Source of the DNA: Schmidtea polychroa
Taxonomy: Eukaryota
DNA length: 64,000 nucleotides
Reading direction: 5' to 3'
Assembly: GCA_044892525.1 (NCBI GenBank)
Contig: CM097885.1
Coordinates: 24,120,001-24,184,000, forward strand
Shown: piece by piece, positions 935-48,911 of the stretch
How positions within the stretch are numbered: position 1 is the stretch's first letter
Layout: each line of letters begins with the position of its first letter
Made by a program: the position numbers and the translations under genes
The notes under the pieces: generated by a model
Database searches by the model: none
What the model saw: the letters and a program-made list of their open reading frames with translations, nothing else
What the model was told of the DNA's origin: nothing

Positions 935-1175
935 ATTAGGATGTTCATCCTGTAAAACATTAAAATCAGTGTTTGTTTCCATAAATTTTATTTCAGTAAA
1001 TATCAGTATCAAATTATATCTTCTTTAAACTTTCTTATTTAAACAAATTTTCTACGAAGATATTTTTAATTAAAATATCTTAATATATATCTTAATAATA
1101 ATAATATATATCTTAATAATAATATATATCTTAATATATATCTTAATAATATCTTAATATCTTTTTAATTAAAAT

Positions 1176-2335
1176 ACCAAGTACTCACAACCGACAACAA
1201 CCAGTTACTAAGCATTATTAACCAACTACTAAGTACCTACAACCAACTAGCTACAATCTACCATGTACTAACAACCGACAACAACCAGGTACTAAGCATT
1301 AATTACCTACAACTGGTACTAACAACCAACCAACTAGGTACTAGCTACCAAGTACTCACAAGCGACAACAACCAAGTACTAAGCATTATTAACCAACTAC
1401 TAAGTACCTACAACCAACTACTAAGTACCTACAACCAACATCAACCAGATACCTACAACTAGATACTAACAACCAGTTACCTGCTACCAAGTACTTACAA
1501 CTAGATACCACGTACTAACTAACTCTCAACCCCCACCTACCCATTAACTAGCTACTAAGTACTAACAACCAGCTAACAACTAGATACCAAGTACTTACAA
1601 CCAACATCAACCAGGTACTAAGCATTATCAACCAACTAAATACTAAGTACTAACAACCAACCAACTAGGTACTAGATACCAAGTACTTACAACCAACATC
1701 AACCAGGCACTAAACATTATCAACCAACTACTAAGTACCTACAACCACCTATCAAGTACTAACAATCAAAAGCAACAACTAGATTCTAACAACCAAAAAC
1801 ATGCAACCAACTAGCTACAACCAGCACTCAACTAGATACCAACTACTAAGTACCTACAACCAACTAGCTACCACCTACCAAGTACTAACAACCAGTTACC
1901 AACTACTAAGCATTAATTACCTACAACTAGTTACTAACAACTAGATACCAAGTACATACAACCAACAACTAAGCATTATCAACCATGTACTAACAACCAA
2001 CTACTAACAACCTACAACAACTAGGTACTAAGCATTATCAACCAAGTACCTAAAACCACCTACCAAGTACATACAACCAACATCATTCAGATACCTACAA
2101 CTAGATACTAACAACCAGTTACCAAGTACCTACAACCACCTACCCATTAACTAACTACAACCAGCTAACAGCAACCAACCAACTACCAAGTACTAACAAC
2201 CAACAACCAGCTAACAACTAACTACCAGATACCAACTACTTACAACCAACAACTAAGTACTAACAACCAGCTAACAACTAGATACCTAGTACTAAGCACT
2301 GTCAACTTGATACCAAGCACTGACAACCAGATGAC
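1176..2335 (+). repeat. C/A-rich, G-poor complex satellite (copy of 7073-8232)
   Basis: Scrambled units such as CAACCAAC, AAGTACTAACAAC, AGATACCAAG, CTAAGCATTAT. Homology with the 7073 block continues through AT-rich DNA to ~2662/8626. Copy at 41266-42425. Confidence 0.9.
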
Positions 2336-2660
2336 CACATGAAATTATTGGTTAAATAAGTAAAATAATGTTTAATTTTTAAATTAACTAATCAATGATC
2401 TAAAATATTAAAGTTAAAGTCAATTTAAGATGAAGATTTTCTGGGATTTCCAATGTTAATTTTAGATGCAAATCTTCGTCAATTAATCAATGACCACATG
2501 AAATTATTGGTTAAATATGAAAATAAGGATTATATTTAGTTGTTAAGTAAATTATGGTGTAAAATTAAGAAATAAAGAATAATTAGGTAAATTAAGGATA
2601 AGTAAAGTTAAAAATTTTAAATAAGTAAATTAAGGTTCAAAATCTAAAATTAAGTAACCA

Positions 2661-3559: not shown

Positions 3560-4660
3560 AATTGCTCTTTCTCTTAATTTCTTTTTTAAACATTGAATAG
3601 CCTCTTTTGGTTCGATAGATGTGTATAGTGATACGACATCAAGACTGAATGGGTATTTGAATTCTCTATGAGAAGTTTTGTTATTATTTAATCTTGTCAT
3701 GAGGCAGTCGCTGCTTTAAAGATGGTGTGGTCCAATAAAGGTTTCAAGATCTTTGCAAGGAGCCAACTTGTTTTAGTTGTTGGTCCATTTTTGTTGAACA
3801 CTATAGGCCTATTTTTGATAACAGAATCCTCTTTGTGAGTTTTAATTAGGTGGTAGAAGTTTGGAAGATCAGAATTTTTTGTGACGAAGCTGTTGGTTAT
3901 TCTGTTGCTGAGCTTCATTTCCAAAGCTATGGCTTTCAATACTTTGTTGATCTTCATTTCGATATTGTTTGGTGACATGCGGCTGACTTTCTTGTATGTT
4001 TCGATATTGCCGAGGTGTTCGTAACCAGCTTCAAAGTACCGATTCTTCTCTATAATGCAAAATTCTCCCCCTTGTCACTTGGTAAGTAAACGTATGGTTT
4101 CTTTTCGAGGGATTTTAATATTGCTTGTTCATCTTTCGATAGGTTTGAGAGTTATGGTTTTCTTTTTTCCTTCTCAACTATCTCCATAATTTTGTGACAG
4201 ACCTTTGAGAGTGTTGAATCTAATTCTGCATCAGGATTTAGTTGATAGAGTTTATCTGCGTTTATGTATACTGGGAGCTTTTCTTCGCTATTTTCATTTT
4301 CATGAGGTATTGTATTGTTCCATTTGATCTGGTACGCAATGCGACAAAAAGCTGTTTTGAAATTGAGGATGGCTGCTTCATCTATTTTTCTGTTTATACT
4401 GAACTTTGGTCCTAGTGAAAGTAATCCTTTTGCACCTTCAGATAGACAATTTGTGAGGTCGGTTACCGATTTTTTGTTCAATGTAATGCTGTTGTTTCTA
4501 TCCAGTGTTTCATTGTTTGATCCTTTTGTCTAATCACAGGGAATAATGTGCTTCTGCTGTCATGAAAGATTGTCTTTGTACCTATTAAATCAATTCTTTT
4601 GGGTGGTTATTCAAATAAGGTTTCTTGATTTCGTTGATTCTAGCTAAATATTTGCTAAGC
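3560..4660 (-). mobile_element. Penelope-like retroelement, N-terminal/RT pseudogene fragment
   Basis: Motifs occur in order across frameshifts: LLSLGPKFS, YLPSDKG, PNFYHLIKTHK..RPIV..GPT, and PFSLDVVSLYTSIEPKEAI (RT motif A, ~3600-3652). Truncated before the YxDD motif. Confidence 0.85.
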
Positions 4661-5435
4661 TAATTATAGAAACTTTATAAAAAAATTGTTCTAAGACTTT
4701 ATAAAAAAATAATATAATATAAAAATAATATATTAATATAATATCCAAATGTGGATGTTTTTATACATAATTTTCGGTTAATTGTCTAATATTGCGATAT
4801 TATTCCGCAATATTACTTCTTTCTCAACTTATTTATTCTCAGCACATACTATCAACATCTTTGCTGTTATTTTCTCTTTGGTGAATTCTTTATTCTCAAA
4901 CAACCTGTCAACAAGGTCCTCCACTTTTTAAAAATATATTTCAATCTCTTCGCCTCTTCTTTTATAATTCAATAAACTTTCCATATTTTTTCCTAATTTT
5001 ATAGACCACTCTGGCGTAATTTTTCATACTGTTTTCATACAAAAATCCGACTACCACTAAAAAAGCATGGAATTTTCAGACTATAGTGACGGCGTCTCGA
5101 TGGTCCTAGGATTTTCAATACAAAAAAAATTTTTCAATACAAAAATCCGACTACCACTAAAAAAGCATGGTAATTTAAGGTCTCAGGATATTTTCAATAC
5201 AAAAATCCGATTATCACTAAAAAAGCCAAGGATTTTTCAGACTATAGTGAGGTGAGTCTCCTTGGTCCTGAGAAATAGATGGTCTACACTAAAAAAACGT
5301 GGTAATTTAAGGTCTCAGGATATTTTCAATACAAAAATCCGACTATCAATAAAAAAGCATGGATTTTTCGATTTAAATTAAGGTGAGTCTCCTTGGTCCT
5401 GAGAAAAAGGTGGTCTACACTAAAAACCTGGTAAA

Positions 5436-6060
5436 TTTTTCAATTACAGTAAATTATGGCTCAAATTTTTGAATTACAGTAAATTATGGGTCTAAAAAAT
5501 TAAATTACAGTAAATAATGGTTCAAATTTTTCAATTACAGTAAGTAATGGGTCTAAAAATTAAATTACAGTAAATAATGGTCCAAATTTTAAAATTACAG
5601 TAAATTATGGTCCAAAAATTTAAATTAAAGTAAATTATGGTTCTAAAAATTGAATTAAAGTAAATAATGGTCCAAATTTTTAAATTAAAGTAAATTATGG
5701 TTCTAAAAATTGAATTAAAGTAAATAATGGTCCAAATTTTTAAATTAAAGTAAATTTAAGTTCTTAAAAATTAAATTACAGTAAATTATGGTCCAAATTT
5801 TTCAAATACAGTAAATTATGGGTCAAAAAATTAAATTACAGTAAATAATGGTTCTAAAAATTAAATTAAAGTAAATTAAGGTTCTAAATTTTAAATTAAA
5901 GTAAATTAAGGTTCTAAAAAATTAAAATAAAGTAAATTAAGGTTCAAATTTTTGAATTAAGTAATCAATGGTAAAAAATTTTAAATAAGTAAATTAAAGT
6001 AATAATTTTTAAATTAAGTAATCAATGGTAAAAAATTTTAAATAAGTAAATTAAAGTAAG
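5436..6060 (+). repeat. ~30-bp tandem minisatellite in the left inverted arm
   Basis: About 20 degenerate units of AATTA(C/A)AGTAAAT(T/A)ATGG(T/G)TC(T/C)AAA. Mirror copy at ~13515-14145. Confidence 0.9.
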
Positions 6061-6099
6061 ATTTTAAAATTTATTAACAAAAAGTTGAAGGTGTTTGAG

Positions 6100-6340
6100 A
6101 ATTGAAATTTTTTATTGAAAATTTTTATGGAATAATTTTTTAAGTAATTTTTAATGGAAATTTTTATGAAATAATTTTTTAAGTTAATTTTTAATGGAAA
6201 TTTTTATGGAATAATTTTTTAAGTAATTTTTAATGGAAATTTTTATGAAATATTTTTCAATGATAATTTTAGATCTAAATTTTTAAGATAATTTTTAATG
6301 GAAATTTTTATGAAATATTTTTCAATGACAAATTTTAATA
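6100..6340 (+). repeat. ~33-bp tandem repeat in the left inverted arm
   Basis: Repeated TTTTAATGGAAATTTTTATG(G/A)AATA. Mirror copy at ~13240-13475. Confidence 0.8.
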
Positions 6341-6344
6341 ATAA

Positions 6345-8232
6345 TTCAACAACAAACCAACAACTTAGTACCAACAACCAGTAACTTACGAACATGTATT
6401 AACAACCAGATACCTACAACTAGTTACTAACAACTAGTTACATGATACTAAGTAAATACAACCACCTAACAAGTACTAACAACCAAAAACAAGCAACCAA
6501 CCAGGTACCAGTTACCACCTACCAAGTACCTACAACCAACTACTAAGTACCTACAACCAAAAACAACCAACTAGGTACTAGATACCAAGTACTTACAACA
6601 AACATCAACCAAGTACCTACTACCACCTACCAAGTACTTACAACTAGTTACTAACAACCAGTTACCTGCTACCAAGTACTTACAACTAGTTACTAACAAC
6701 CAATTACCTGCTACCAAGTACTTACAACTAGATACCACGTACTAACTAACTCTCAACCCCCACCTACCCATTAACTAGCTACTAAGTACTAACAACCAAC
6801 AACAACCAAGAACTAAGCATTATCAACCAACTAAATACTAAGTACTAACAACCAACATCAACCAGGTACCAGATACCAACTAGCTACCAAGTACTAACAA
6901 CCAACAACAACCAGGTACTAAGCATTATTAACCACCTACTAAGTACCAACAACCAGTAACTTACGAACATGTATTACCAACCAGATACCTACAACCAGTT
7001 ACCTGATACCAAATACTTACAACTAGATACCAAGTACTATCAACCAAAAACCACCAACCAACTAGGTACTAGATACCAAGTACTCACAACCGACAACAAC
7101 CAGTTACTAAGCATTATTAACCAACTACTAAGTACCTACAACCAACTAGCTACAATCTACCATGTACTAACAACCGACAACAACCAGGTACTAAGCATTA
7201 ATTACCTACAACTGGTACTAACAACCAACCAACTAGGTACTAGCTACCAAGTACTCACAAGCGACAACAACCAAGTACTAAGCATTATTAACCAACTACT
7301 AAGTACCTACAACCAACTACTAAGTACCTACAACCAACATCAACCAGATACCTACAACTAGATACTAACAACCAGTTACCTGCTACCAGGTACTTACAAC
7401 TAGATACCACGTACTAACTAACTCTCAACCCCCACCTACCCATTAACTAGCTACTAAGTACTAACAACCAGCTAACAACTAGATACCAAGTACTTACAAC
7501 CAACATCAACCAGGTACTAAGCATTATCAACCAACTAAATACTAAGTACTAACAACCAACCAACTAGGTACTAGATACCAAGTACTTACAACCAACATCA
7601 ACCAGGCACTAAGCATTATCAACCAACTACTAAGTACCTACAACCACCTATCAAGTACTAACAATCAAAAGCAACAACTAGATGCTAACAACCAAAAACA
7701 TGCAACCAACTAGCTACAACCAGCACTCAACAAGATACCAACTACTAAGTACCTACAACCAACTAGCTACCACCTACCAAGTACTAACAACCAGTTACCA
7801 ACTACTAAGCATTAATTACCTACAACTAGTTACTAACAACTAGATACCAAGTACATACAACCAACAACTAAGCATTATCAACCATGTACTAACAACCAAC
7901 TACTAACAACCTACAACAACTAGGTACTAAGCATTATCAACCAAGTACCTAAAACCACCTACCAAGTACATACAACCAACATCAACCAGATACCTACAAC
8001 TAGATACTAACAACCAGTTACCAAGTACCTACAACCACCTACCCATTAACTAACTACAACCAGCTAACAGCAACCAACCAACTACCAAGTACTAACAACC
8101 AACAACCAGCTAACAACTAACTACCAGATACCAACTACTTACAACCAACAACTAAGTACTAACAACCAGCTAACAACTAGATACCTAGTACTAAGCACTG
8201 TCAACTAGATACCAAGCACTGACAACCAGATG
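6345..8232 (+). repeat. C/A-rich complex satellite
   Basis: Strongly strand-asymmetric CAAC/TAC/AAGTAC repeats. The first ~480 bp are mirrored at 12756-13232. Copy at 46435-48322. Confidence 0.9.
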
Positions 8233-8750
8233 ACCACATGAAATTATTGGTTAAATAAGTAAAATAATGTTTAATTTTTAAATTAACTAATCAATGATCT
8301 AAAATATTAAAGTTAAAGTCAATTTAAGATGAAGATTTTCTGGGATTTCCAATGTTAATTTTAGATGCAAATCTTCGTCAATTAATCAATGACCACATGA
8401 AATTATTGGTTAAATATGAAAATAAGGATTATATTTAGTTGTTAAGTAAATTATGGTGTAAAATTAAGAAATAAAGAATAATTAGGTAAATTAAGGATAA
8501 GTAAAGTTAAAAATTTTAAATAAGTAAATTAAGGTTCAAAATTTTAAATTAAAGCTAAATGAGTAAATTAAAGTAATAATTTTTAAATAAGTAAATTAAG
8601 GTTCAAAATCTAAAATTAAGTAACCAATGGTTCAAATTTTTAATTAAAGCTAAATAAGTAAATTAAAGTAAGATTTTTAAATTTATTATCAAAATATTGA
8701 ATAACCACCAATTTTTTTGAGAAATGTAATTTTTAATGAAAATTTAAATG

Positions 8751-8789
<39 letters not shown>

Positions 8790-9214
8790 TAATAATAATA
8801 ATAATTCAACAGTTACCAACAATCGGTTACTAAATATTTTTAACTAGGTGCTGACAAATACTTACAACATGATACCACGTACTAACTCTCAAACAACCAG
8901 ATACTTACAACGAACTACTAAATATTCTTCATTGTATTTTATGAAATGCTTTTTAAATTAATTTTTTATACATCTTCTATAATAATTTTAATTACAATCA
9001 GTAGAAAAACCTTTTCATATTTAACAAAAATGTTGATTTTCATCAAAAAATGAATAATTGTCAACTCATCCCCACGCGAAATTCAAAATAATTACAATGA
9101 AAGACTAATGAATTCTAATTTACAAAACATTCTTCTTTTAATTGATAACTTATTATTGCAATGTAAAAATCGCATTCAATAAATACTTATTGTTGATCAA
9201 TTTTATTATATATA

Positions 9215-12085
9215 CTCTGAGTTTATCCGACAGGATGTTTTGACCCCCTAAAGGTACTGGTCGTAAGGGTACTGGTCGTAAGGGTATTGGTAACACTCAA
9301 CCCCCACCTACTCATTAATTAGTTACCATGTACTAACAACTAGGTTTCAAACAACTAAATACTAAACACTAACATCCAACAACAACCAGGTACTAAGCAT
9401 TATCAACCTACAACTATATAACAACAATCAGTAAACAACACTGTACCAACTACCAAATACAAGAAACCAACAACTTAGTACCAACAATCAACTAACAACA
9501 CATAAAAATAATAGCAATTAAATAAAAAAATTATTCTTCATCGCATACACTATTTTCTAATCAAAATCTAAAAAGTCAACCAACTACTTACAACCAACAA
9601 CTATGTACTAACAAATTGATCTTTAAAAGCAAATACTCATCACTTGAAAAAAATTAGATGAAAAATTAATTGAACTCAAGGCACTTTTAAGATATTTGAA
9701 CTCAAGGCATCAATAACTTGGTAAAAATTGATTAAATTATTGTAAAAATTTAAATTATTCAAAATATACTAAATTAAAAAAATATAATTAATGGGCAAGA
9801 AAGAACTTTAAATTCTAGTCATAGATCATTCAGGTTAATATGAATCAACTAAGATAATAAATAATAAGATAAGATCTAGTAGATAATTGATTTAGATTGA
9901 ATAAATTAATTTAAATAAAATAAAATTTAATTATTTTTGTAAAAGTAATACATGTACTCAAATTGATTGACTGATTTCTCAATATATTCAAAAAATCAGT
10001 ATAAATTCATTACAATTATCAAAGTCAGCAATCTACAATAAAAATAATTATCATTAAATTCCAAAAGAGACTAGATAACTAATGATAACATCTAACAAAC
10101 CAGTAAATTCATTTAAATGACAATAATTGGTATATCCAAGTGAATTCTCCAATAAAATCATCTAAAAAGAATCATTTTCCCCTAAATATATCAATATTTA
10201 AAGATTGGTATTTTAATGATAAGTACTTGTTAAAGATCATATATTCACCTCAAACTAACAAGATTCCTTAAAATCCCCTTAAATGACTTTAATTCCTATT
10301 ATCACGAATATTTCCCTATAAAACATGTAAAATAATTTGGTCATTAACCCTAAATAATTGATAAAATCTAATGATAAAACCGGTTATAATTAACTTTTTG
10401 TTAATCACTGTACTCGAAATTTAAAATAAATATAACTGACTAGGTCCCATTAAAAGATTAAATTTATCCATTCAATAAAATATATTTCTTCAAATGATCA
10501 TTTTACCGATATTCAACCGATTTAATTACTAATTAAAATCAAGATTTCTTTCAATAAAGATCAATTTTATTTAGTCGATGTTTTAAGTCCATATTTCTAA
10601 ACTTTTGTCATTCTCCGTCTAAATAAAGATAAAAATAATTTAAAGTTGATATCAATCCCAATTATCTGTCAAGTTTTCATTGTCAAAACCAAGTAAATCG
10701 ATCATTATCCCTACTTAATAATCCATAAATCTAAATTAATATACAATGGATTAATCACAACCTAATAAAACGATATAATTATTATTGATTCATAACTGAC
10801 TAATGTATTGCAATTTCCTTAAAAAACATTGATATTTTACCAACATCACCCTTAAAAAATCATATATTCCCATCGAAACCCTTCCCTCATTAAAAGGAAC
10901 CGACTATATCTCCCTTACAATAATATATTCCCATCTTAACCCATCTCACATTAAATCTAACCGACTATATCCCCTTAAAAGATCATATTTTCCCCATCTT
11001 AACCGATCTCTCATTAAATCTAACCAACAATATCCCATCTTAACCGATCTCTCAGCAAATATTTCTACCCTTTTAAACATCTATCCGATTATATCCCTTA
11101 TTTTCCCTAAAGATTTCACCCACTTGAGCCCTTTAATATATATCAATCCTCTCAAAATCCTCAGAGAACTTCAAAAATATGACTTTTAATTAATTGTTAT
11201 AGAACCAGACAAATAATAAGAGCCCATTAAAAGATCAAAATTCACTAAATTTTCTACAAATATTTACCATCAAATACTGGAGATGATAGTATATTGTTTG
11301 ATCATAATTCTTCATCGATTCAGCCAATCATTTTCAAGCAAACTAAATTTCAGTATATTCTACAATCATTTTCATGTAAATTTAAAGTTAACTGGTTTCT
11401 TAGCTTATGTTTTTTAAAGTTCATCAATGAGTAAATTATTGAAAAAATTATTTAGTCAAATATATTACAAAGTTATCATCAAAAATCACTTAATTATTAA
11501 CCTAATTGTCAATGAAATTAATTTTTATTTAAAAACTATTCAATAAAATACCACTAATTATCAAGAAATTAACTAAATTTATCAATTAAATTTATCACCA
11601 TTAAAACTTTTAATCAGTTAACATGAAATTCTTAGAAAATTATTCAATATCCTCATCAAAATTTATCCTATCACTTGATTATTGTACAAACTTTAATTAT
11701 TAACCTCATTAAAATAAATTTTTATTTAAAATTAAAAAACAAGTCAATAAAAATACATTCAATTATCAAGAAATTAATTAAATTTACCTTAGAATTAGTA
11801 TTAAATTACAGATATTCACAAAAATTACGGAAATTCATGAAAATAATGGAAATTCACAAAATTGATAAAAATTCACAAAAATTATAGAAATTTACTTGAA
11901 TATTTACTAAAACCATCAACTCTAAAAATTATCAATGAATGCCTTAAACAACAAATTTGCTTAAATTCAAATAAAAGCAATAAATATCTTTACGACTTAT
12001 ACCCTTACGACATGTTGAATGTGAGTAGTACCCTTGTGAGCAATACCCATAGGGGGACAGAATATTTTGTCGGATAAACTCAGAG
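9215..12085. repeat. Inverted-repeat pair with 15-bp subterminal repeats (possible DNA-transposon ends)
   Basis: CTCTGAGTTTATCCGACA (9215-9232) is perfectly inverted at 12068-12085, extending imperfectly to ~36 bp. TATATA lies outside both. Tandem GTCGTAAGGGTACTG units lie inside. Related end at ~24535-24600. Copy at 49337-52207. Confidence 0.6.
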
Positions 12086-12598
12086 TATATATTAATTAAC
12101 TTATTCTTCATTGAATCAGTAAAATTATCATAAATTTCGATAAAAAATCTTATGTGGTAAGCAATGTAAAGAGAAATATTCTTTAAACTTTGATAAAATT
12201 AACAATGAAGGTGGTAAGAATCTTCATTAAAGTGAGGAAATTACTCGATGATAAATTCAAATGGGTGAAAATAATTGGTAGAATAATTCATTAATGGAGG
12301 TAAATAATGAGAAGTGGCATAGATAAGAAGAAGGTTGATAAAAATGTAAATATATTAATTGAATTTATTTAAAATTATTTCATAAAATTCATAAATTTAA
12401 TAAAAAAAACTTTTAAAACAAATATTTGTGGGGAATAATTAATCAAAATCGGAGGGATATTAGTGATTAATTAATTGAAAATAGAGAATCGGGGAATATA
12501 AGTGAATAATTAATGGAAAATCGGGAATCGGGGGTAATATAGGGATTAAATAGTGGAGAATAATAGTGAATATAAGTGAGGAGGATATATAATTTAAG

Positions 12599-12676
12599 CT
12601 AGTTTATTACATAACAAGCCGTGACTAGTTTATTACATAACATGCCGCAACTAATTTATTACATAACAAGCTGTGA
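12599..12676 (+). repeat. Three tandem 26-bp repeats
   Basis: CTAGTTTATTACATAACAAGCCGTGA / CTAGTTTATTACATAACATGCCGCAA / CTAATTTATTACATAACAAGCTGTGA. Copy at 52721-52798. Confidence 0.9.
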
Positions 12677-14686
12677 ATGGTATTTTACCAACATTTTACT
12701 TAATTTTTAAAGTATGTAATTTAATTTTAATTATATTTTAAAATTGTATATATTGTAATGCTTAGTACTTGGTTGTTGTTGGTTGTTAGTACTTAGTAGC
12801 TAGTTAATGGGTAGGTGGGGGTTGAGAGTTAGTTAGTACGTGGTATCTAGTTGTAAGTACTTGGTAGCAGGTAATTGGTTGTTAGTAACTAGTTGTAAGT
12901 ACTTGGTAGCAGGTAACTGGTTGTTAGTAACTAGTTGTAAGTACTTGGTAGGTGGTAGTAGGTACTTGGTTGATGTTTGTTGTAAGTACTTGGTATCTAG
13001 TACCTAGTTGGTTGTTTTTGGTTGTAGGTACTTAGTAGTTGGTTGTAGGTACTTGGTAGGTGGTAACTGGTACCTGGTTGGTTGCTTGTTTTTGGTTGTT
13101 AGTACTTGTTAGGTGGTTGTATTTACTTAGTATCATGTAACTAGTTGTTAGTAACTAGTTGTAGGTATCTGGTTGTTAATACATGTTCGTAAGTTACTGG
13201 TTGTTGGTACTAAGTTGTTGGTTTGTTGTTGAATTATTATTAAAATTTGTCATTGAAAAATATTTCATAAAAATTTCCATTAAAAATTATCTTAAAAATT
13301 TCCATCTAAAATTATCATTGAAAAATATTTCATAAAAATTTCCATTAAAAATTACTTAAAAAATTATTCCATAAAAATTTCCATTAAAAATTAACTTAAA
13401 AAATTATTTCATAAAAATTTCCATTAAAAATTACTTAAAAAATTATTCCATAAAAATTTTCAATAAAAAATTTCAATTCTCAAACACCTTCAACTTTTTG
13501 TTAATAAATTTTAAAATCTTACTTTAATTTACTTATTTAAAATTTTTTACCATTGATTACTTAATTTAAAAATTATTACTTTAATTTACTTATTTAAAAT
13601 TTTTTACCATTGATTACTTAATTCAAAAATTTGAACCTTAATTTACTTTATTTTAATTTTTTAGAACCTTAATTTACTTTAATTTAAAATTTAGAACCTT
13701 AATTTACTTTAATTTAATTTTTAGAACCATTATTTACTGTAATTTAATTTTTTGACCCATAATTTACTGTATTTGAAAAATTTGGACCATAATTTACTGT
13801 AATTTAATTTTTAAGAACTTAAATTTACTTTAATTTAAAAATTTGGACCATTATTTACTTTAATTCAATTTTTAGAACCATAATTTACTTTAATTTAAAT
13901 TTTTGGACCATAATTTACTGTAATTTTAAAATTTGGACCATTATTTACTGTAATTTAATTTTTTAGCACAATAATTTACTGTAATTTAAAAATTTGAACT
14001 ATAATTTACTGTAATTTAATTTTTAGACCCATTACTTACTGTAATTGAAAAATTTGAACCATTATTTACTGTAATTTAATTTTTTAGACCCATAATTTAC
14101 TGTAATTCAAAAATTTGAGCCATAATTTACTGTAATTGAAAAATTTACCAGGTTTTTAGTGTAGACCACCTTTTTCTCAGGACCAAGGAGACTCACCTTA
14201 ATTTAATTCGAAAAATCCATGCTTTTTTATTGATAGTCGGATTTTTGTATTGAAAATATCCTGAGACCTTAAATTACCACGTTTTTTTAGTGTAGACCAT
14301 CTATTTCTCAGGACCAAGGAGACTCACCTCACTATAGTCTGAAAAATCCTTGGCTTTTTTAGTGATAATCGGATTTTTGTATTGAAAATATCCTGAGACC
14401 TTAAATTACCATGCTTTTTTAGTGGTAGTCGGATTTTTGTATTGAAAAATTTTTTTTGTATTGAAAATCCTAGGACCATCGAGACGCCGTCACTATAGTC
14501 TGAAAATTCCATGCTTTTTTAGTGGTAGTCGGATTTTTGTATTGAAAATCCCAGGACCATCGAGACCCCCCTCACTATAGTCTGAAAAATAGCCTAATCA
14601 AAAGTTGCAACAAAAAAAAATCGTGCAACAAAAAAAATATTGCAAACGCGGGGGGGGGGGTTGCAGCGGGCTACTATCTACCTACT

Positions 14687-15095
14687 CACATACTATCAAC
14701 ATCTTTGCTGTTATTTTCTCTTTGGTGAATTCTTTATTCTCAAACAACCTGTCAACAAGGTCCTACACTTTTTTAAAATATGTTTCAATCTCTTCGCCTC
14801 TTCTTTTATAATTCAATAAACTTTCCATATCCTTTATTACGTCCCTTTCGTAATCAAATGCCATTCGTAACCTGGCTTGAAATCCTTCTGCTTTTTTAAC
14901 TGTTTTCGCATATTTCTCCAATAGATCCTCGTCGATCATGCATGCGGTGAATCTTTCTTGTTCTTTTTTATTGATGCCTTTAGCATCGAATTAGATCTTG
15001 GATCTTCTGATGAATTTTTCCAAGTCATCACCTTGACAGAACACTTTTGGCAATAATCTTTCGTTAATCGCGTCGGTGTTTACCGCTGCCACCAT
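14687..15095 (-). pseudogene. gag-like remnant (variant A) with tRNA-Leu PBS
   Basis: MVAAVNTDAINERLLPKVFCQGDDLEKFIRRSKI*FDAKGI...CMIDEDLLEKYAKTVKKAEGFQARLRMAFD, with stops. Copies at ~27547-27961 and ~54873-55281. Confidence 0.7.
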
Positions 15096-15817
15096 ATCAG
15101 GATTCTCATCCGTTTTTAAATCACTAAATAATTCCATGAATTTTCTTTAATAAAAGATATTTCAATTCGGGTAAAGTATACCTATAAAATAAAAATTTAA
15201 TAAAAAAATATTATAATTTAAATGATATATTTTAATAAATGTTTACGCAAAAATTTGCAAATCATTATTATTTATTACAATGAATATTTACAAAATTTAT
15301 TTTACAAATTTTATTTACTAAAAAATAAAAATTTACTAAATTAAAAATATTAACATTTACTTAAATAAAAAATTATATTAAATTTCCTTTAAATTATAAA
15401 AAGGAATCAATACTTACATTGTAAATTTTTATTTCGATTTATTGACATAATTTTTCTCTTTATTCGTATTACCTAAATTATCAATTAATTAAATCAATAA
15501 ATTAAAAATTATGTTTACTTTTTCTTTTCAAATTTCCTTTAATCTTCGATTTCAAATTGTCTTCATTAATATTATGTAACTAAATAAATTATTTAATTAA
15601 TCAATAAATTAAAATTTACCAAATTTCTGAATTTTTTTCTCGGACATTCATAACGTTTTCTATTAGAGAATTCATTTTTAAAGTTAAATATTTGTAAAAT
15701 GTGACTAATGATAGATTAGTAGATAGATAATGATAGATAGATAATGATAGATAGTAGACTGAAGATAATAAACAGGAACAAATTCTAACCAATCAAAATC
15801 AAGGAAAGGTAGGAAAA

Positions 15818-15869
<52 letters not shown>

Positions 15870-18205
15870 CGTTGCGGTATTTAAATTTAAATTTATTTTA
15901 AAAATCCATTTTGACGCTAAAGTCGATTTATATAACAAAGACATAATATACTCATTATTTCCTACAAATATTTCACCCATCAAATACCTACCTAGAGATG
16001 ATATATATTGATTGATCATAATAGCAAACTAAATCACAAATTTCAGTATATCTTACAATAATTTTCAAGTAAATTTGAAGTCCTTGATAAAGTTAACTGG
16101 TTTCTTAGCTTATGTATTTTTAAAAGTTCATCAATGTGTAAATGAAAATATTCTTAGAAAAGTATTGAAAAGATTATTGAGTCAAGTGCAATACAAAGTC
16201 ATCTAAAATTAAACCTATTACTTGATTATTAACTTAACAGTCATTAAAAAAATTAATTTTTTTTTTAAAATTTAGAAAATTATCAAGAAATTCAATTAAT
16301 ATCACCATTAAAACTTTAAATATTTAATCAATCAACATGAAATTCTTAGAAAATATACAAAAAACTACTTAGTCAAATTCAATTACATTACAAAGTCATA
16401 TCCTATCACTTGATAATTAACCTAACTGTCAATAAAAATAATTTTTATTTAAAATTAAAAATCAATCAATAAAAATGCATCCAATTATCAAGAAATTAAT
16501 TAAATTTATCTTAGAACTAACTTTAAATTTTTAAATATTCATTCAATCCACATGAAATTCACGAAAATGATAAAAATTCTCAAAAACCATCAACTCTAAA
16601 AAAAATTACTAATGAATAGACACCAAAATTTATCTAAATAATCTTTCAAATTAATTCATTAAAATTGAAGACAACACGTTGGAATTTGTCATTACATTCA
16701 ATTAAAATTAACTAAATCAAGATATGAACTTTGATAAAAAATATTATTGTAAAATGGTTAGAATTAACACTGTAGTGTTCTTTAAATCTAATTAATTTAG
16801 TCATAATTTTCTTTAATTATTACTACTAATTCTCATCATCTTTCAAAATTTATTACTTAATTTAAAATTGCATCCTTTAATTTTCTTAATTTTAAATTTT
16901 AGCATTCAATTTACCAAAAATTGCATTTAATTACTTTTTTTAAATATATCTCTTATTATTATTTCATAAAAATTCTATTTAAATTTATCATTGAAAATTA
17001 TTTCAAAAAGATTTGCATCTGAAATTGTCAATTCTCATCGTTGATAGTTTTTCAAAATATCTGACAATAAATTATTACTGTAATTTTAAAATTTTTACTT
17101 TAATTTACTTAATTTAAAAGTATTACTATAATTTAAAAATTTTAATTTTAATTTAATTCTAGACCATTGATTACTCAAGTATAAAATTTTAAACCTTAAT
17201 TTACCTATTTATCATTAATTTACTTTAATTTAACCCTTGTTTAAAATATTGACCATTGATTACTTTAATTTAAAAATGTATCCCTTAATTTACATTATTT
17301 CCATCTAAAATTTATTCATAAAAATATTTATATAAAATTGTCATAGAAAAATATTTTATAAAAGTTTTCATTTTAAATTTTCATTTCTCATCAGATGATA
17401 GTTATTCAAAATATCTGACAATAAATTATTAATTTAATTTAAAATTTTACATTAATTTACTTTAATTTAAAATTTTGAACTAAATTACTTTAATTTAAAA
17501 CTTAACCTTAATTCACCTATTTATTTTATTTTACTTAATTTTAAAATTTGGTCCTTAAATTACTAATTTGAACCCTTAATTTACTTAAGTTTAAAAATTT
17601 AGAACTTAATTTAAAATTTTCGACCATAATTAACCTATTTATCATTCATTTACTTTAGTTTAATTTTTGATCCTTGATTAATTCAATATAAAAATTTAGA
17701 CCCTTAATTTAATTTAATTGAAAATATTAGACCTTAATTTGCTTATTTATCCTTAATTTATTTAAGTTTAAAAATATAGACTTTTTTAAATTTACTTTAA
17801 TTTAAAATTTAACCATTAATTTACAAATTGAAAATTTTAGACCTTAATTTACTTAATTGAAAATTTTAGACCATAATTTTCATGTAAAAATGTCATTGAA
17901 AAAATTTATATTGTTAGATAATTTTAAATATATTTCTAGATAATTTTAAATATATTTTAGAATAACTCAGTAATTGGTCTCAATAAGAATTAATTCTCAA
18001 TGAGAATTAAGAAAAAGGAAATAAAAGAAAGAAAGAAATGTATTTTCGGGAAGAAGATTGCAAAGTTCCAGGAGATTGACAAAGACTATCTTATAGTCGA
18101 AAATGTTTTTTCATTAAATACATTATTTACAGCTAAAGGTTTAAATTATCACTTTATTGTTTTAAATAATATTTTGAAAATAATAATAATAATAGTAATA
18201 ATAAC

Positions 18206-18251
<46 letters not shown>

Positions 18252-19585
18252 GTAATAAGATCTTTGTTCTAGTGGAGTCCTGTTTTATGAGTCTTTGTTC
18301 TAAAAATATAGATGATGAATCGTTTGACGAGTCTTTGTTCTAAAAAGGATAAGTCATCGATGAGTCATACAGAAAGGGGGATGTGAAAAAAAAATAAAAC
18401 AGTACCCACATTTAAACGATGAGTCATCGATAAGTCATTGTCTTTGGTAAAGTGTCAGCATTGGCATCGACATGGAGTTCCAATATTCATTATTATATTT
18501 AATATTACTGTTTATATTTCACATTTGTCTGTTATTGAATGAATGTAGAAAGCCTTCTTCTCTATATAGATGACTTGTTAATGAATTCCTAATTAGAAAG
18601 TTTACTCATGTCAAGAGGCTATAATTACTTTGTGAAATAGGCAAAGATTTTTTCTTCATGTTAACATAAATTTAGATTTCAACAACTGATTAATGACAAA
18701 TTGCAAATTATTGACTATTTTCAATTAATATAATCTTATTACATTTCATTAATAAATGTTTTAAGGCAGTACGAATATTAGTAATCAATTAAAAGTTGAG
18801 CAGATCTTTTGTGAATAAAAATTAAAATTCTATAGTCTTTCGTTGTTATTTTAAAATATTTGAATTATTTTCAATTTCACGTGGTGTTTTAAAGTGTTTG
18901 AGTTGATAATTATTCATTTTTGACGAAAATCAATATTTTTGTTAAATTTAGACTTAGACAGAAAATGTTTTTCTACTGATTGTAATTAAATATATTTTTG
19001 AATTTAATACATATAAAAGGTTAATTTATTTAAAAAGCATTTGATAAAATACAATGAAGAATATTTAGTTGATTGTAAATACCTGGTTGTAAGTCTTTAG
19101 TATCTGGTTGTTTGAGAGTTACTTAGTATTTGGTATCTGGTACCTAGTTAGTTGGTTGTTGTTGATTGTTAGAAAATAATCTTTGAAACTAATCTGTTAG
19201 TAGCTAGTTGTTTGTTGGTTGTTAATACATGGTAGCAGCTATCTGGTTGTAAGTTCTTAGTTGTAAGTATTTGGTACTTATTTGTTAGTACCTAGTTAAA
19301 AATCCTTAGCAGCTGATAGTTGGTATTTATTATCTGAATGTAAATAATACCTAGATAGTACATATTTGTTAGTATTTTGGTTGTAGGTATCTGGTTGAAT
19401 TTTAGATTTTGACAAGAATTTAAGAAATATTCTTCTTCCTGAATTAGGAAAAGCTTCTTATAAGCAAATATATGATGATGAATAAATTTTGTATCTTTAT
19501 CACTGTCTTGTTAATTTTTATTTATTATTATAGTTATTTTTTATGTGTTGTTAATAAAGTCTTTAGTTGTTAAGTATTTGGTTGA

Positions 19586-19636
<51 letters not shown>

Positions 19637-21207
19637 ATTATTACTTGCGAAATTTGCATCTAAATTTTCTTTAAAAATTATTTCATAAAAACTTTCATTA
19701 AAGATTTTCATTTCTCAAAAGCTGCCTATCATTCAAACTTTTTGATTATAAAATTAAAATTATTACTTTAATTAACTTATTTAAAAATTTACTTTAATTT
19801 AAAATTTTTATTTATTTTACTTAATTTAAAAATATTACTTAAATTTTTAAAATCTTTGAACAATGATTACGTTTTTTTAAAAATAAAAGCCCATAATTTA
19901 ATTTGATCAATTTTTAGACTCTTAATTTACTTAAAATTAAATTATTCTCATCATCTTTCAAAGTTTATTACTAGTTTTTAAAATTTAGCCCTTCATTTAC
20001 TTATTTACCAAATATAACCCTTATTTACTAATATTTTTAGTAGAAAAAATTAATTGAAATCGATCTTTGAAATTAATTTAATAAAAATTTGTATTAAATT
20101 TTGCCTTTGAAAATTATTTCATAAAACTTTCTATTTAAAATTATCTTACAAAATTATTTCATAAAAAATTTCATTTCTCAACAGCTTGCAATTATTCAAA
20201 CTTTGTCATAATAAATTTAAAATTCTTTCTTTTATTTACTTTCAATATATAAGAAGTTATATTATACAAAGAAATTCAATAGACTGACTGTATTATGGAA
20301 ACACACAAACTTACCTGCGCTTTAAATTTTAATGTTTTAATGAATAAAATCTTTTATATAGAAGGTGAGAAAGTGGTAGAAAAATAAAATTAACACACAA
20401 ATACAGCACATATACACCAAACACCACTGAGATACGTTCTCTATAGTGGTGGTTGGCGTGTAAATTCACTCACCAATTTATTTACCAATTGTAATTGGTT
20501 GTAATTGTAAATCATCTTTGTCAATTTATCATGTCTCATTTATATATTTTGGAAATTTATTTTAGCCATTTTACAAATGGCTTTCAAGTAATTTTTTTTA
20601 TTTAAAGTAAATTTTAAGACTTGAATTCTGATCCATATGAGATATGAGATCATTATTCAAGTTCTTAAATATTACTTTTAATCAACAGTATAATTATATA
20701 TTATTTTAATTAATTTTCAGGGTTTCTAGGAATTTTATGATATTTAGCTCTATTTATTTTAGAATTATTTCAAAAAAATGTGAGTCCGATATATTTTTAA
20801 TTATAGTTAATGAAATAAATCAATCACCTAAAATATTTATTTTTTTAAAACATTTTGGGGAAAATCGATGATTAAAATAATTTTTGTAATTTTTTTTCTG
20901 AGCTCAATATGAGGAGCTTCTTTCAGGAAATCAAATCTGGATTGAAATGATATTGAACCAAATTCATCTGCTCTTAATATTTTCATTAAAAATATAATTT
21001 TAAAAATTTTCAACGATCTTTTTTTTCTAAAAATTGTCAAAAATAAAGTTTATTATAGAAACGTATCTCATCGTTACATTTATACGAATCAAAAATTTGT
21101 ATGTGCTTTTTAGTATGTGTTGCGTTTGTGTGCAGTTTTTAATTTTCCTTCCACTTTTCAGTTTTCTATAATATAAGATGTATCTCACTGAGCTATAAAT
21201 TAGAACA
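14687..21207 (+). repeat. ~6.5-kb direct repeat, copy A
   Basis: Colinear with 27554-33968, from cacatactatcaac to gagctataaattagaaca. Small indels and SNPs. Confidence 0.92.
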
Positions 21208-21487: not shown

Positions 21488-23353
21488 AATAATTTTTATT
21501 TAAAATAAAAAAACCAATCAAGAAAAATGCATCCAATTATCAAGAAATTAATTAAATTTATCTTAGAACTAACTTTAAATTTTTAAATATTCATTCAATC
21601 CACATGAAATTCACGAAAATTATAAAAATTCTCAAAAACCATCAACTCTAAAAAAAATTACTAATGAATAGACACCAAAATTTATCTAAATAATCTTTTA
21701 AATTATTTCATTAAAATTGAAGACAACACGCTGGAATTGATCATTACATTCAATTAAAATTAACTAAATCAAGATATGAACTTTGATAAAAAAATATTTT
21801 TGTAAAATGATTAGAATTAACACTAGTGTTCTTTAAATCTAATTAACTTAGTCATAATTTTCTTTAATTATTACTGCGAATTCTTATCATCTTTCAAAAT
21901 TTCTTACTTAATTTAAAATTGCATCCTTTAATTTACCAAAAATAGCATTTAATTACTTTTTTTTAAATATATCTCTTATTATTATTTCATAAAAAATCTA
22001 TTTAAATTTATCATTTAAAATTATTTCAAAATATTTTGCATCTCAAATTGTCAATTCTCATCGTTGATAGTAAATTGTTGACAATAAAATATTACTGTAA
22101 TTTTAAAATTTTTACTTTAATTTACTTAATTTAAAAGTATTACTATAATTTAAAAATTTTAATTTTAATTAAATTCTAGACCATTGATTACTCAAGTATA
22201 AAATTTTAAACCTTAATTTACCTATTTATCATTAATTTACTTTAATTTAACCCTTTATTTAATTAATTTAGCCCTTGTTTACCAAATATAGAAGTTTTAA
22301 ATATAGACCATTGATTACTTTAATTTAAAAATGTATCCCTTAATTTACATAATTTCCATCTAAAATTTATTCATAAAAATATTTATATAAAATTGTCATA
22401 GAAAAATATTTTATAAGTTTTCATTTTAAAAATTCATTTCTCATCAGATGATAGTTATTCAAAATATCTGACAATAAATTATTAATTTAATTTAAAATTT
22501 TACATTAATTTACTTTACTTTAAAATTTTGAACTTAATTACTTTAATTTAAAACTTAACCTTAATTCACCAATTTAATTTAATTTACTTAATTTTAAAAT
22601 TTGGTCCTTAAATTACTAATTTGAACCCTTAATTTACTTAAGTTTAAAAATTTAGAACTTAATTCAAAATTTTCGACCATAATTTAACTATTTATCATTA
22701 ATTTACTTTAGTTAATTTTAGATCCTTGATTAATTCAATTTAAAAATTTAGACCCTTTATTTAATTTAATTGAAAATTTTAGACTTTAATTTGCTTATTT
22801 ATGCTTAGTTTATTTAAGTTTAAAAATATTGACTTTTTTTAATTTACTTTAATTTAAAATTTAATCATTAATTTACCTAATTGAAAATTTTACACCGTAA
22901 TTTTCATGTAAAAATGTCATTGAAAAAATTTATATTGTTAGATAATTTTACATATATTGTTAGATAATTTTAAATATATTTCTAGATAATTTTAAATATA
23001 TTTTAGAATAACTCAGTAATTGGTCTCAATAAGAATTAATTCTCAATGAGAATTAAGAAAAAGGAAATAAAAGAAAGAAAGAAATGTATTTTCGGGAAGA
23101 AGATTGCAAAGTTCCAGGAGATTGACAAAGACTATCTTATAGTCGAAAATGTTTTTTCATTAAATACATTATTTACAGCTAAAGGTTTAAATTATCACTT
23201 TATTGTTTTAAATAATATTTTGAAAATAATAATAATAACAGTAATAATAATAGTAATAAGATCTTTGTTCTATTGGAGTCCTGTTTTATGAGTCATTGTC
23301 TTTGTTCTAAAAAAGATGAGTCATCGATGAGTCATTGTCTTTGGTAAAGTGTC
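21488..23353 (+). repeat. More diverged partial copy of 16438-18455
   Basis: Colinear AT-rich sequence. ORF 23046-23291 matches 18000-18272. Confidence 0.85.
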
Positions 23354-24310: not shown

Positions 24311-25129
24311 GGTAATAATATTGATAATTTAAGATTTTTTTTTTCGAGAAATGCTAAATATTTTACTCAATTACCTTTTGCTAAATATTATTTTAAATGA
24401 CTAAAAATGACAAAGTTAACCAATAAATTAGTCGCTCAAAATAGGAATATTAACGAAATATATTACATAAATGGAAATATTTCTCACTAAATTACCTAAG
24501 AATTTCTAACTAATATATATGTGCCTTAATTAATATACCGTTGCGACCAATACCTTTACGACAAATACCGATAGGGGGACAAAATATCTTTGCGGATAAA
24601 TATATATATATATATATAAAAGAACTTACAATATGCTATGATCTTTATTGATTAATTTGTTATATATATCAAGAGACTGATATTCATAAATTAACTAAAA
24701 TTACTCAAATATATTATATTACCTAAATGTTTTTACTTAATGATACATTAAATGATCTTGTTTTTTTAATATACCTATGAGTCAATTTCTAAAATAATCA
24801 TGTTATTTTATCATGCATTATTTGAATATAAATTTGCTGAATGTGAAATGAACAAGTTTCTTGTTAAATTTCGTAAGAATTTAATAATTAATGATATTTT
24901 GCAGAAAGGTATATAAAATCTCTATGAATGTTTTCGTCAAAATAAATTAGTTCCTAAAAAACTCACAAAGAATTGCCCTATAAATTTTATTCGAAACTAC
25001 CCCCAATTAAATGTTTTGTTGTTTTATTATTTTCACAAGTTTATTATTATTATTTTTTTAAATCGGCATTAATTGAGAAGGAGATTTCGATTTCCACTTG
25101 TCTCATTGGAAAACCTTATAAAATAGGAC

Positions 25130-26076: not shown

Positions 26077-26982
26077 TTAATATTTTGGTAAAATAATTTT
26101 GACATTTTTGTGCAGAATCTTAGAAAAGGAGGCGATATTCGATTTTGACAATCCAATTGAATCTGCTAGCAATTTTGCGTCTACGTCGACATTTTTTAAG
26201 TCACAGACCAATTGAATGCAACATACCGCAATCAAAACGCTTCCTTTAATGCGAAATTCACTAATTTCACTTACATTTTTTACTGCTTCTTTTACAAGCT
26301 TTTCTATTTTGAAATCCGTCACGTCTAAATAATATAAAAATCTGCCAACGAGTAAATCTGGCTTGATTTCACGCGTTGGTCGTTTCAATGCAGTTTGGAT
26401 AAGTTTTAATAACTTTTTGAATTTCTTTTCATCAACCAGTGGACATTCGTTTAATATTTCTTTCGGCAGTCTCGGAACTTCATTGTCTACGCAAGCCAAA
26501 TATAGACATACGCAATTCAAGGTCGCTTTGTTTCGCTTGACACAGGCCTCTGATTTTGTAATTTCATGGAGTAGAGATACAGCTCGCGAATAAACATTTC
26601 TATCTACTTTTATTCTTTCACACAAATCTGCGATTTGTCGTTTCTGGGACGCCAATGACACTTCTTTGCTACTCTTAGTTGAAAGGAATTTAAATTTCGA
26701 ATTTCCATTTTCATCTAGAAATCTGAGGTTAAAACCTGTTTGAACGGCAGTCGATGTTTGTCCATCTGTTTCTGACGTTTCCACCTCTCCGACTCGACAA
26801 GCGTCATGTCCATCCGTTCCATCGGATGCGAATGTTCTCCATTCACTAGAAGGATCAATCGCCCGTTCAACTACAACCAGACCACAAGCGGAACATATCA
26901 TATCTCCAGTTCGACAATCAGTTATTAGAACTCTATTTGGATGATATTTACAATGAACCATTTTCATATTGTCATTATTCAT
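26077..26982 (-). CDS. TFIIB: Transcription initiation factor IIB-like protein, divergent, intronless (301 aa)
   Basis: Zinc ribbon CKYHP..D.RTGDMICSACGLVV, B-reader ID.SSEWRTF..D.CRVG, first cyclin repeat CLYLAC..EVPR..KEI, full-length second repeat. Open ATG-to-TAA frame, more GC-rich than its flanks. Confidence 0.93.
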   Translation of the reverse strand: MNNDNMKMVHCKYHPNRVLITDCRTGDMICSACGLVVVERAIDPSSEWRTFASDGTDGHDACRVGEVETSETDGQTSTAVQTGFNLRFLDENGNSKFKFLSTKSSKEVSLASQKRQIADLCERIKVDRNVYSRAVSLLHEITKSEACVKRNKATLNCVCLYLACVDNEVPRLPKEILNECPLVDEKKFKKLLKLIQTALKRPTREIKPDLLVGRFLYYLDVTDFKIEKLVKEAVKNVSEISEFRIKGSVLIAVCCIQLVCDLKNVDVDAKLLADSIGLSKSNIASFSKILHKNVKIILPKY

Positions 26983-27030
26983 TTTATTTGTTTAATAATT
27001 ATATAAATTAATTAATTAATTAAGCAAATT

Positions 27031-27065: not shown

Positions 27066-27546
27066 TTAAAAGTAATTGTTAATCTAAAAAATGCTAAAAT
27101 ATTTTTATATTTAATGTTTTGTGTAAGGTTTTCCGATGAGACAAATGAAAATCGAAACCTCCCTCTCAATTAATGCACATCTGTAATCAGCAAATGTAAT
27201 AATTGTAATAATAAATTCGAAATTATTTCGCTGTTTTTTCAAATATGTAAAACTATTTTCTTCTGATTTAAATTTTATTTGAATTTGGACAGTTTCATAT
27301 TTGTGAAAAATAGGGCTGGAATAGCTGTACTGACCTCATGGAAATGTATTTTCCTTATAATTTCGTTTATAAAGTTAATTATCATAGGAATCTATGTAAT
27401 GTATTGACAAAAAAAGATTTTGAAAGTAATTAAATGATAAATTATTATATTTTTACATAAATTTATGTAATTAAATTTTCTTTAGTTTGTTTTATTTTTT
27501 TATTTATTATTTTAAAATTCTTTAATTAATCTTACTCGAGGAAAAT

Positions 27547-28654
27547 TCTCAGCACATACTATCAACATCTTTGCTGTTATTTTCTCTTTGGTGAATTCTT
27601 TATTCTCAAACAACCTGTCAACAAGGTCCTACACTTTTTTAAAATATGTTTCAATCTCTTCGCCTCTTCTTTTATAATTCAATAAACTTTCCATATCCTT
27701 TATTACGTCCCTTTCGTAATCAAATGCCATTCGTAACCTGGCTTGAAATCCTTCTGCTTTTTTAACTGTTTTCGCATATTTCTCCAATAGATCCTCGTCG
27801 ATCATGCATGCGGTGAATCTTTCTTGTTCTTTTTTATTGATGCCTTTAGCATCGAATTAGATCTTGGATCTTCTGATGAATTTTTCCAAGTCATCACCTT
27901 GACAGAACACTTTTGGCAATAATCTTTCGTTAATCGCGTCGGTGTTTACCGCTGCCACCATATCAGGATTCTCATCCGTTTTTAAATCACTAAATAATTC
28001 CATGAATTTTCTTTAATAAAAGATATTTCAATTCGGGTAAAGTATACCTATAAAATAAAAATTTAATAAAAAAATATTATAATTTAAATGATATATTTTA
28101 ATAAATGTTTACGCAAAAATTTGCAAATCATTATTATTTATTACAATGAATATTTACAAAATTTATTTTACAAATTTTATTTACTAAAAAATAAAAATTT
28201 ACTAAATTAAAAATATTAACATTTACTTAAATAAAAAATTATATTAAATTTCCTTTAAATTATAAAAAGGAATCAATACTTACATTGTAAATTTTTATTT
28301 CGATTTATTGACATAATTTTTCTCTTTATTCGTATTACCTAAATTATCAATTAATTAAATCAATAAATTAAAAATTATGTTTACTTTTTCTTTTCAAATT
28401 TCCTTTAATCTTCGATTTCAAATTGTCTTCATTAATATTATGTAACTAAATAAATTATTTAATTAATCAATAAATTAAAATTTACCAAATTTCTGAATTT
28501 TTTTCTCGGACATTCATAACGTTTTCTATTAGAGAATTCATTTTTAAAGTTAAATATTTGTAAAATGTGACTAATGATAGATTATTGTTTATAGACTGAA
28601 GATAATAAACAGGAACAAATTCTAACCAATCAAAATCAAGGAAAGGTAGGAAAA

Positions 28655-30909: not shown

Positions 30910-30990
<81 letters not shown>

Positions 30991-32361: not shown

Positions 32362-32394
<33 letters not shown>

Positions 32395-34067: not shown

Positions 34068-35267
34068 AACCAAAGCGCAATTGATAATGACTAAATGGAC
34101 ATTAAATAAAATCCAGTCAATTGCGCTTTTTATTAATTTTAATATTAACAGAAATTTTAAATGATTAATCATGTGTATTTAATTGACTTATTTTCTTTTT
34201 TATTTAATATAAATATTTTAAAATATAAATTAGGAAAGCCAATGAATGCCGTTTATAGGTTATTGTAATGAAAATTTGAAATTAATATTTTGGGGAATTA
34301 GATAAATTTTTATAACTTGAGAATACAATTTAATATTTAACGAGTTTGTGAAGCTTTAAATTAAAGTTTGTGTAAAGCATGTTTAAACATTTCCGTATTT
34401 TAAAATACAATTTTTCATATAACTTGTTGAAAGTTGTAATTGTTAATTTTTTTAAAGACACCTGAAATCAGAAAAAAATTTTTATTAAATTTGTATTGAA
34501 ATAAACTTTGTAAAAAAATATTTTTAATGAACAATCTTCGTTTAAGTCAAAGAATTTTAAAATGATAATTTATTTAAAATATATATCAATAAAATTAAAT
34601 ATTATTTAAAATAAATAATAATTTTTAAATTGTAAAATTTAATTATTTTTATTTTAATAGTCATTTAAAATTATTTATTTTGCTTATGCTATAAATTATT
34701 AAATACATATTAAATATTAAGTTTAAAGCGTTTAAAAAATAATTTATTAGTAATTTAGATATAATTGGTGTTGTATTATAAATAAGAAAAAGTGAATTTA
34801 GTATAAAAATATATTTTAAAAAAACAAAATTTGTCATATTCTGATATTTGCGACCAAATATTTTATAAGAATAAAATTTTTTTTACAATTTATTTTTAAA
34901 CTTTATAAATTTTATATATTTTTTTGGAAAATATTGTAAATTTGAATATCATTTAAGTTAATAATTAATTTGTTTAAATTTATCTAAATTATATAATATA
35001 TAAACTAATCCAAAAACCAAATAAATGTTTTGATTCAGAAAAGATTTCGAGTTCAGTTCTGAATGTTTTACATTGAATGACAAATAGAATATAACAGAAA
35101 ATACCAGAAATGGAAGGAAAATATTTTTGTAACAGAGTTTAATGAAATTCTATTCGGGTTATGATGTAAAATAACCATTGATGTTTGAAATAACGAATAT
35201 TTACCAGGAAGGTCATTGTGGAGTAATTGAGATATTAATTAAAGAAAAATGTGCGAAAACATAGTAG

Positions 35268-36230: not shown

Positions 36231-36239
36231 CTTCTTCTT

Positions 36240-48869: not shown

Positions 48870-48911
<42 letters not shown>

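Follow-up and report, generated by a model that had tools for sequence, protein, structure and literature searches.

We analyzed a 64,000-nucleotide stretch of AT-rich eukaryotic DNA from Schmidtea polychroa (GenBank assembly GCA_044892525.1, contig CM097885.1, positions 24,120,001 to 24,184,000, forward strand; hereafter the window, numbered from its first base) and found in it a gene-less foldback element of ~9.7 kb, with near-identical, satellite-rich arms, a broken left end and an intact right end. Its sequence features suggest a non-autonomous foldback mobilised by a Polinton/Maverick helper, an attribution about which we are slightly more doubtful than confident. That the element is a non-autonomous foldback had already been proposed in an initial annotation of this DNA, and our analyses support it. 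The element and its two arms are as follows.

5032-14686, no strand assigned: gene-less foldback element with a broken left end and an intact right end
5032-6826, plus strand: left arm without the outer 138 bp, 98.55% identical to 14548-12753
12753-14548, minus strand: portion of the right arm that pairs with the left arm, its inner boundary lying inside the 7-bp satellite

Comparison of the window with itself aligned the two arms as an inverted pair, with 98.55% identity over 1,798 aligned columns. This agrees with the ~1.8-kb, near-identical arms described initially, save that the left arm, placed at 5037, actually begins at 5032. The 27 mismatches among 1,789 columns comprise two at the ends of the alignment, 21 within 5576-5678 and four elsewhere, leaving four base differences in ~1,690 positions outside this 103-bp patch. 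When its 30-mers were listed, the patch proved to consist of one 60-bp dimer lost and another gained, and the point divergence of the arms is therefore ~0.2%, or ~99.8% identity with whole units of the 60-bp array set aside. The right arm measures 1.93 kb including its tip, and the unpaired middle of the element 5.9 kb.

The interior, as had been claimed, appears to be non-coding. There are 41 stop-to-stop frames of at least 40 amino acids in the element, of which the longest (133 amino acids) lies within satellite. A Pfam scan took in 24 of them, the other 17 being mostly mirror or satellite frames; none of the 24 reached the curated cut-off (three weak matches fell below it), and genes for pPolB, integrase, ATPase, protease and capsid were not found among these frames. 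The only Rfam match scored 25.8 bits, far short of its cut-off of 70, and ARAGORN found no tRNA in the element.

The arms are layered, running from the outside in through the tip, modules of 130-132 bp, a 30-bp array, a 39/40-bp array and a 7-bp satellite, and GC content is 46% in the tip against 12-38% in the arm layers. The parts of the element are listed here from the tip inwards.

14549-14686, minus strand: tip, on the right arm only, with a 16-nt terminus starting with AG, a C-run and TTGCAAC-type short repeats, 46% GC
14671-14686, minus strand: terminal 16 nt, the first 14 of which fit the 7-bp satellite matrix in register from base 1
5032-5436, plus strand: subterminal modules of the TACAAAAATCCGAC type, 130-132-bp period, with shuffled sub-blocks; mirrored at ~14141-14548
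5438-6053, plus strand: 30-bp array organized in 60-bp dimers and passing gradually into units of 28-29 bp; mirrored at 13525-14147
6109-6322, plus strand: 39/40-bp array of 13-bp subunits; mirrored at 13241-13472
6345-8236, plus strand: satellite of 7-bp period, C/A-rich on the plus strand; only its first ~490 bp are mirrored, at 12756-13222
8412-9153, plus strand: an older version of the arm cassette, now diverged (29-bp array, AAT run and remnant of satellite), together with an AT-rich module
9199-12102, no strand assigned: inner segment with ~70-bp inverted repeats at 9199-9273 and 12027-12102 (82-83%), set in TA runs

Most of this layering had been recognized before, namely the tip, the TACAAAAATCCGAC modules, the 30-bp array and the C/A-rich satellite, but what had been called a 33-bp array has a period of 39/40 bp: the third layer repeats at 13, 39-40 and 79 bp, autocorrelation being 0.65-0.70 at 39, 40 and 79 bp versus 0.32 at 33 bp, and Tandem Repeats Finder gave periods of 39, 65 and 79. 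Heptamers could be parsed from 84% of the satellite at 6345-8236 (226 in all). On the left side the satellite extends to 8236, and it follows that the right arm terminates within satellite. Within each arm, the satellite runs in the direction opposite to the tip. Its two blocks (6345-8236 and 12756-13222) are strongly strand-skewed, with the G-rich strand pointing to each end of the element, as in telomeric repeats.

Farther in, the block at 8412-9153 is 66-72% identical both to the arm and to relatives outside the element at 18777-20036, its copy of the cassette spanning 8412-8805, and the interior modules are 68-71% identical to older relatives at 15957-16608 and 18777-20036. The family is thus old and these arms are young, which calls for recent copying of one end onto the other. 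Older relatives of the arm cassette and interior modules (65-85%) also lie in several local duplications at 15957-20241, 21488-23259 and 28802-33000. Using nhmmer, we found no match to the tip or the modules in the older outside relatives. The inner 2.9-kb segment at 9199-12102 is, from its inverted repeats, a probable nested non-autonomous element; a 78% relative of its end lies outside the foldback, at ~24535-24620.

The right end of the element could be placed to the base. On the minus strand the tip reads AGTAGGTAGATAGTAG, and the window contains its last nine bases at just two places, 14678 and 54864; with the 138 bp missing from the left arm, the tip is indeed confined to the right arm, as first described, and the window holds no other source of it. 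The sequence into which the element is set, and an element-free form of it, are found at:

14687-15095, minus strand: target, a dead retrotransposon-gag-like fragment with two stops; the junction falls between 14686 and 14687
27545-28566, minus strand: empty form of the target, matching the right flank, with no element between 27552 and 27553

Element-free target sequence occurs at 218, 4843 and 27553, preceded each time by ATTCTCAG, and the right boundary therefore lies exactly between 14686 and 14687. The right flank is identical to the empty form at 27553 across 1,014 bp, so that the insertion, or a block duplication, must be recent. Pfam gave no match on the target, which owes the name gag to the Atlas features of a paralogue at 35238-35540 (scores of 0.90-0.94 to retrotransposon-gag and related clusters). 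The right junction also lies only 8 bp from the break of the empty target copy (27545-27553), beside the TFIIB upstream region.

Several classes of transposon were rejected at this end. Kolobok and piggyBac insert into TTAA, and the right flank starts with CACATA. A Helitron-like end was discarded because a hairpin in the tip gave z = +0.9, with 163 of 200 shuffles folding equally well. Ginger/Tdd and GingerRoot have termini of TGT or TA (PMC2836005, PMC6839031), and the end here starts with AG.

The left end is different in kind. The left arm has lost its outer 138 bp, and its truncated edge abuts a chimeric gag paralogue, with a TTT microhomology of 3 bp and a local 9-bp duplication at the joint. 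A 1.48-kb piece of the element interior has also been detached and is joined, at 1174, to another copy of the same gag chimera, behind iterated AT-rich repeats.

4685-5034, minus strand: left flank, a chimeric gag-like paralogue that the broken left arm interrupts
1174-2653, plus strand: detached 1.48-kb piece of the element interior (7073-8552), with nine differences

From established end-joining signatures, we infer that both are repair junctions. Between 1075 and 1174 the iterated AT-rich repeats, of 10-18 bp, are copied from adjacent sequence and resemble templated repair filler. The gag-like sequence at 60-1081 (and 4685-5034) is itself chimeric, a 152-bp block 97-98% identical to one paralogue being joined to a 78% paralogue between 361 and 362. 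With the left end lost, no target-site duplication is readable, be it of 6 bp or of 8-10 bp. A 144-bp direct repeat (4843-4986 and 14687-14830) was considered as a long target-site duplication and rejected, as it reflects gag paralogy and stops 45 bp before the arm.

The element is present twice, because positions 1-23685 of the window recur at 40091-63862, in a 40,090-bp tandem duplication.

45122-54872, no strand assigned: second copy of the element, both junctions the same, within the 40,090-bp tandem duplication

Having the same junctions, the second copy belongs to the repeat and was rejected as a second insertion; it differs from the first by five substitutions and four indels (whole repeat units of 29, 3 and 60 bp, and one change in a G-run). 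Beyond the window, the first unit of the 40-kb array may still retain the left tip. We find it very improbable that the inverted arm or the 40-kb repeat is an assembly artefact from chimeric or uncollapsed reads. It is true that no more than 16 substitutions separate the two 40-kb copies over 23,651 columns, as would also be seen with uncollapsed haplotypes, and the repeat itself may be either a real amplification or uncollapsed haplotypes. However, the fixed differences between left and right arm are common to both 40-kb copies, which fold-back at the level of reads would not yield, and the right arm has 138 bp missing from the left. Moreover, 46-87% of sampled words were present in four public runs of two studies, possibly including the source sample, and five rows of the listing stood at 0.46 or more. 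The nine sites at which the detached piece departs from the element are likewise common to both copies.

We also examined how the right end is represented in public sequence. Four of the 24 listed runs, all of them contigs and from three studies, were aligned to 14420-15150, the best being possibly the source sample of the window. Over the four runs, summed depth was 1.4e7, 2.1e6, 2.1-2.5e6 and 4.7-6.8e3 for the modules (14520-14569), 1.6e4, 1.6e3, 4.6e2 and 0.13 for the tip (14645-14669), and 4.9e5, 9.3e4, 9.0e4 and 31 for the gag flank (14720-14744), bearing in mind that summed depth is not copy number and that the G-run lowers the depth of the tip. The modules are thus a very abundant repeat, mostly running on into further modules. 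Among the 15 of 36 joints listed, one from 14554 to 14660 was seen in three of the four runs (two studies) and one from 14618 to 14662 in one of the four; variant elements, that is, carry one and the same outer tip next to their modules, as a terminus common to a family would. The arrays change quickly by gaining and losing units. With the abundance of the modules relative to the tip, this bears on the initial suggestion that such elements may seed satellite DNA, although the passage could have run from satellite to element instead. Of the 32 contig pieces listed (out of 42,803), four lie within longer records and have their first base precisely at 14687, as would be expected of gag relatives that lack the element, and no loose ends at 14686 occurred among the 24 of 612 rows listed. 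No RNA run was among the listed public runs containing the sequence. Patterns built on the tip or the modules retrieved 0, 0 and 12 loci from viral contigs and 0 and 11 from metagenome contigs, the 12 extending by at most 18 bp and the 11 by at most 40 bp, as expected by chance.

The suggestion of a Polinton/Maverick helper starts from the terminus. At the one end available the element begins with AG, which starts 4.4-4.6% of random positions (0.07-0.13% for AGTAG). Polinton ends are 5'-AG with 6-bp duplications (PMC6839031), and vertebrate Mavericks have the end motifs (AGT)2, (AG)3 and (AC)3A on terminal inverted repeats of 46-1,447 bp (PMC8097293). Long terminal inverted repeats (not in themselves specific to Polintons), an end made of AG and short repeats and a size of several kb are thus shared with this group (PMC8097293, PMC6839031), and Polintons are listed among the repressed transposons of planarians (PMC10558129).

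Several observations weigh against a Polinton helper. The terminal AGTAGG matches (AGT)2 at five of six bases and is none of (AGT)2, (AG)3 or (AC)3A, in a list that covers vertebrates only. The element differs from Polintons in being gene-less, and its 1.93-kb arm exceeds the upper limit of ~1.45 kb in vertebrate Mavericks. When 17 candidate left boundaries were compared with the start of the right flank, the longest match was 2 bp, although a broken end would be expected to show no duplication, and none of the 32 listed contig pieces bridges the right junction. Most foldbacks are of Mutator type, the length of the duplication being the main clue (PMC4079207). Finally, the end resembles the element's own satellite: the terminal 16-mer matches its G-rich strand at 13 of 16 bases in 28 places in the window, and in a matrix built from the 226 parsed heptamers the first 14 nt of the tip score 13.1 bits, in register from base 1, with negative scores in the other seven offsets tried. 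Outside satellite, two positions in 70,548 score at least 13.1 bits, whereas among true satellite dimers 19% fall below it; the test was post hoc, the match having been noticed first, and its chance is ~1 in 2,500 allowing for registers and strands. As these 14 nt score as satellite, the AG motif may derive from satellite. Of the Polinton-like terminus originally proposed, the AG start therefore stands, but the motif is incomplete and by its score the tip is equivalent to a pair of units from the satellite of the element; derivation from a Polinton remains plausible only, the 6-bp duplication being unreadable with the left end lost.

Judging from these sequences, the terminal heptamer either gave rise to the satellite or was itself, with the rest of the end, assembled from it. 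The match to the satellite, at 13 of 16 bases and in register, also favours an explanation in which this is not a transposon end at all and the element is a palindrome produced by break repair in satellite-rich DNA, with the 16-nt tip as satellite-derived filler. The repair-type junctions on the left and at 1174, the excess of modules over tips in the public runs and the 8 bp separating the right junction from the break in the empty target copy point the same way. Templated filler, however, should be exact, and the best satellite match to the tip has three mismatches; moreover, nothing else in the window could have supplied the 138-bp tip, and tip variants are joined to modules in runs of two studies. 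We regard this explanation as unlikely.

If a Polinton/Maverick was the helper, the element would borrow its integrase in trans, and possibly its protein-primed polymerase as well. Whichever the helper, the element most likely inserted with two ends into the dead gag fragment, using enzymes supplied in trans, and later lost its left tip by break repair, probably no later than the event behind the 40-kb tandem repeat. The arms were probably made or kept identical recently, one end being copied onto the other by copy-back or conversion, and the arrays probably turn over by slippage of whole units. The identity of the helper as a Polinton is the least certain of these steps. More speculative still, and in our view a long shot, is that the terminal heptamer of a Polinton-mobilised foldback was amplified into the inverted 7-bp satellite within each arm, so that a free 3' end could pair with the satellite of its own strand and thereby start copy-back synthesis. 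If true, copy-back from the satellite would explain both the inner arm boundary within satellite and the near-identity of the arms.

A competing possibility, which we consider doubtful but more than marginal, is a cut-and-paste foldback of the Mutator (FB, Rehavkus, Tetris) or P (Galileo) type, in which modules and heptamers would act as extra transposase-binding sites and the AG would be incidental; Drosophila FB also starts with AG. Galileo, by comparison, has ends that start with CA and 7-bp duplications, whereas the end here starts with AG. Nevertheless, this member of the P superfamily likewise has long arms with internal repeats and an association with rearrangements (PMC4079207), and local rearrangements are found at the arms here. 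The terminal heptamers recur internally as an array, as Galileo binding sites do (PMC4079207). Our element has the published hallmark of Mutator-type foldbacks, a non-coding middle flanked by long modular arms in which the number of tandem repeats varies, and its architecture matches Rehavkus and the outer, tandem-repeat and inner domains of Tetris.

Tetris of Drosophila virilis is likewise non-autonomous, with a helper that had not been found, and has modular arms, a variable tandem-repeat domain, a non-coding middle, rearranged copies and a link to satellite DNA; it differs in having 8-10-bp duplications and one 220-bp repeat, compared with four repeat layers here (PMC4079207). Rehavkus, of the Mutator group in Tribolium, has long inverted termini, some exceeding 11 kb, with subterminal tandem repeats whose copy number varies and from which satellites can arise by expansion (bioRxiv 10.1101/2024.12.02.626372); the comparison is by architecture, not by sequence or transposase. 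Against a Mutator or P transposase, no fragment of either was found in the window frames scanned, where the sole DNA transposase was a hAT, and a start of repeated AG-T with a GC-rich block behind it is the layout seen in Polinton-like ends. A Polinton/Maverick helper remains the reading we prefer.

The neighbourhood of the element holds a number of other features. Within the 40-kb unit lies a divergent TFIIB gene that has no introns (26080-26991, minus strand), and the named TFIIB relatives are animal and fungal proteins with ~28% identity or less. The hAT is a remnant at 36436-38275, whose Spin-doc zinc finger, DUF4371 and dimerisation domains are spread over two frames; transposase fragments lie at 36645-37884. 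A weak match to GIY-YIG at 35798-36115 falls below the Pfam cut-off. This GIY-YIG-like frame and duplicated frames are located at 35798-36296, 3700-4529 and 39009-39900, and resemble a Penelope-type retroelement.

As it stands, this is one more foldback of the Tetris/Rehavkus build, in a one-ended, damaged copy, and foldbacks are already known. The founding Polinton paper (Kapitonov and Jurka in 2006) reportedly lists non-autonomous Polintons already. In the literature covered, outside which lay most subscription papers and Repbase, nothing was found that describes Polinton derivatives lacking genes and bearing multi-layer satellite arms; an Anolis survey reports no non-autonomous Polintons (PMC3014272), and Polinton terminal inverted repeats take part in rearrangements in C. 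elegans (bioRxiv 10.1101/2024.01.15.575659). The present locus pairs a foldback arm at repair junctions with a 40-kb repeat carrying a TFIIB gene. The in-register match between terminus and satellite offers a concrete, testable route from the end of an element to satellite DNA, and the copy-back route, if true, would show a virus-like origin turning into dispersed satellite DNA. The finding would matter most directly if the helper is a Polinton, as such elements would reveal the cis sequences needed by the Polinton integrase.

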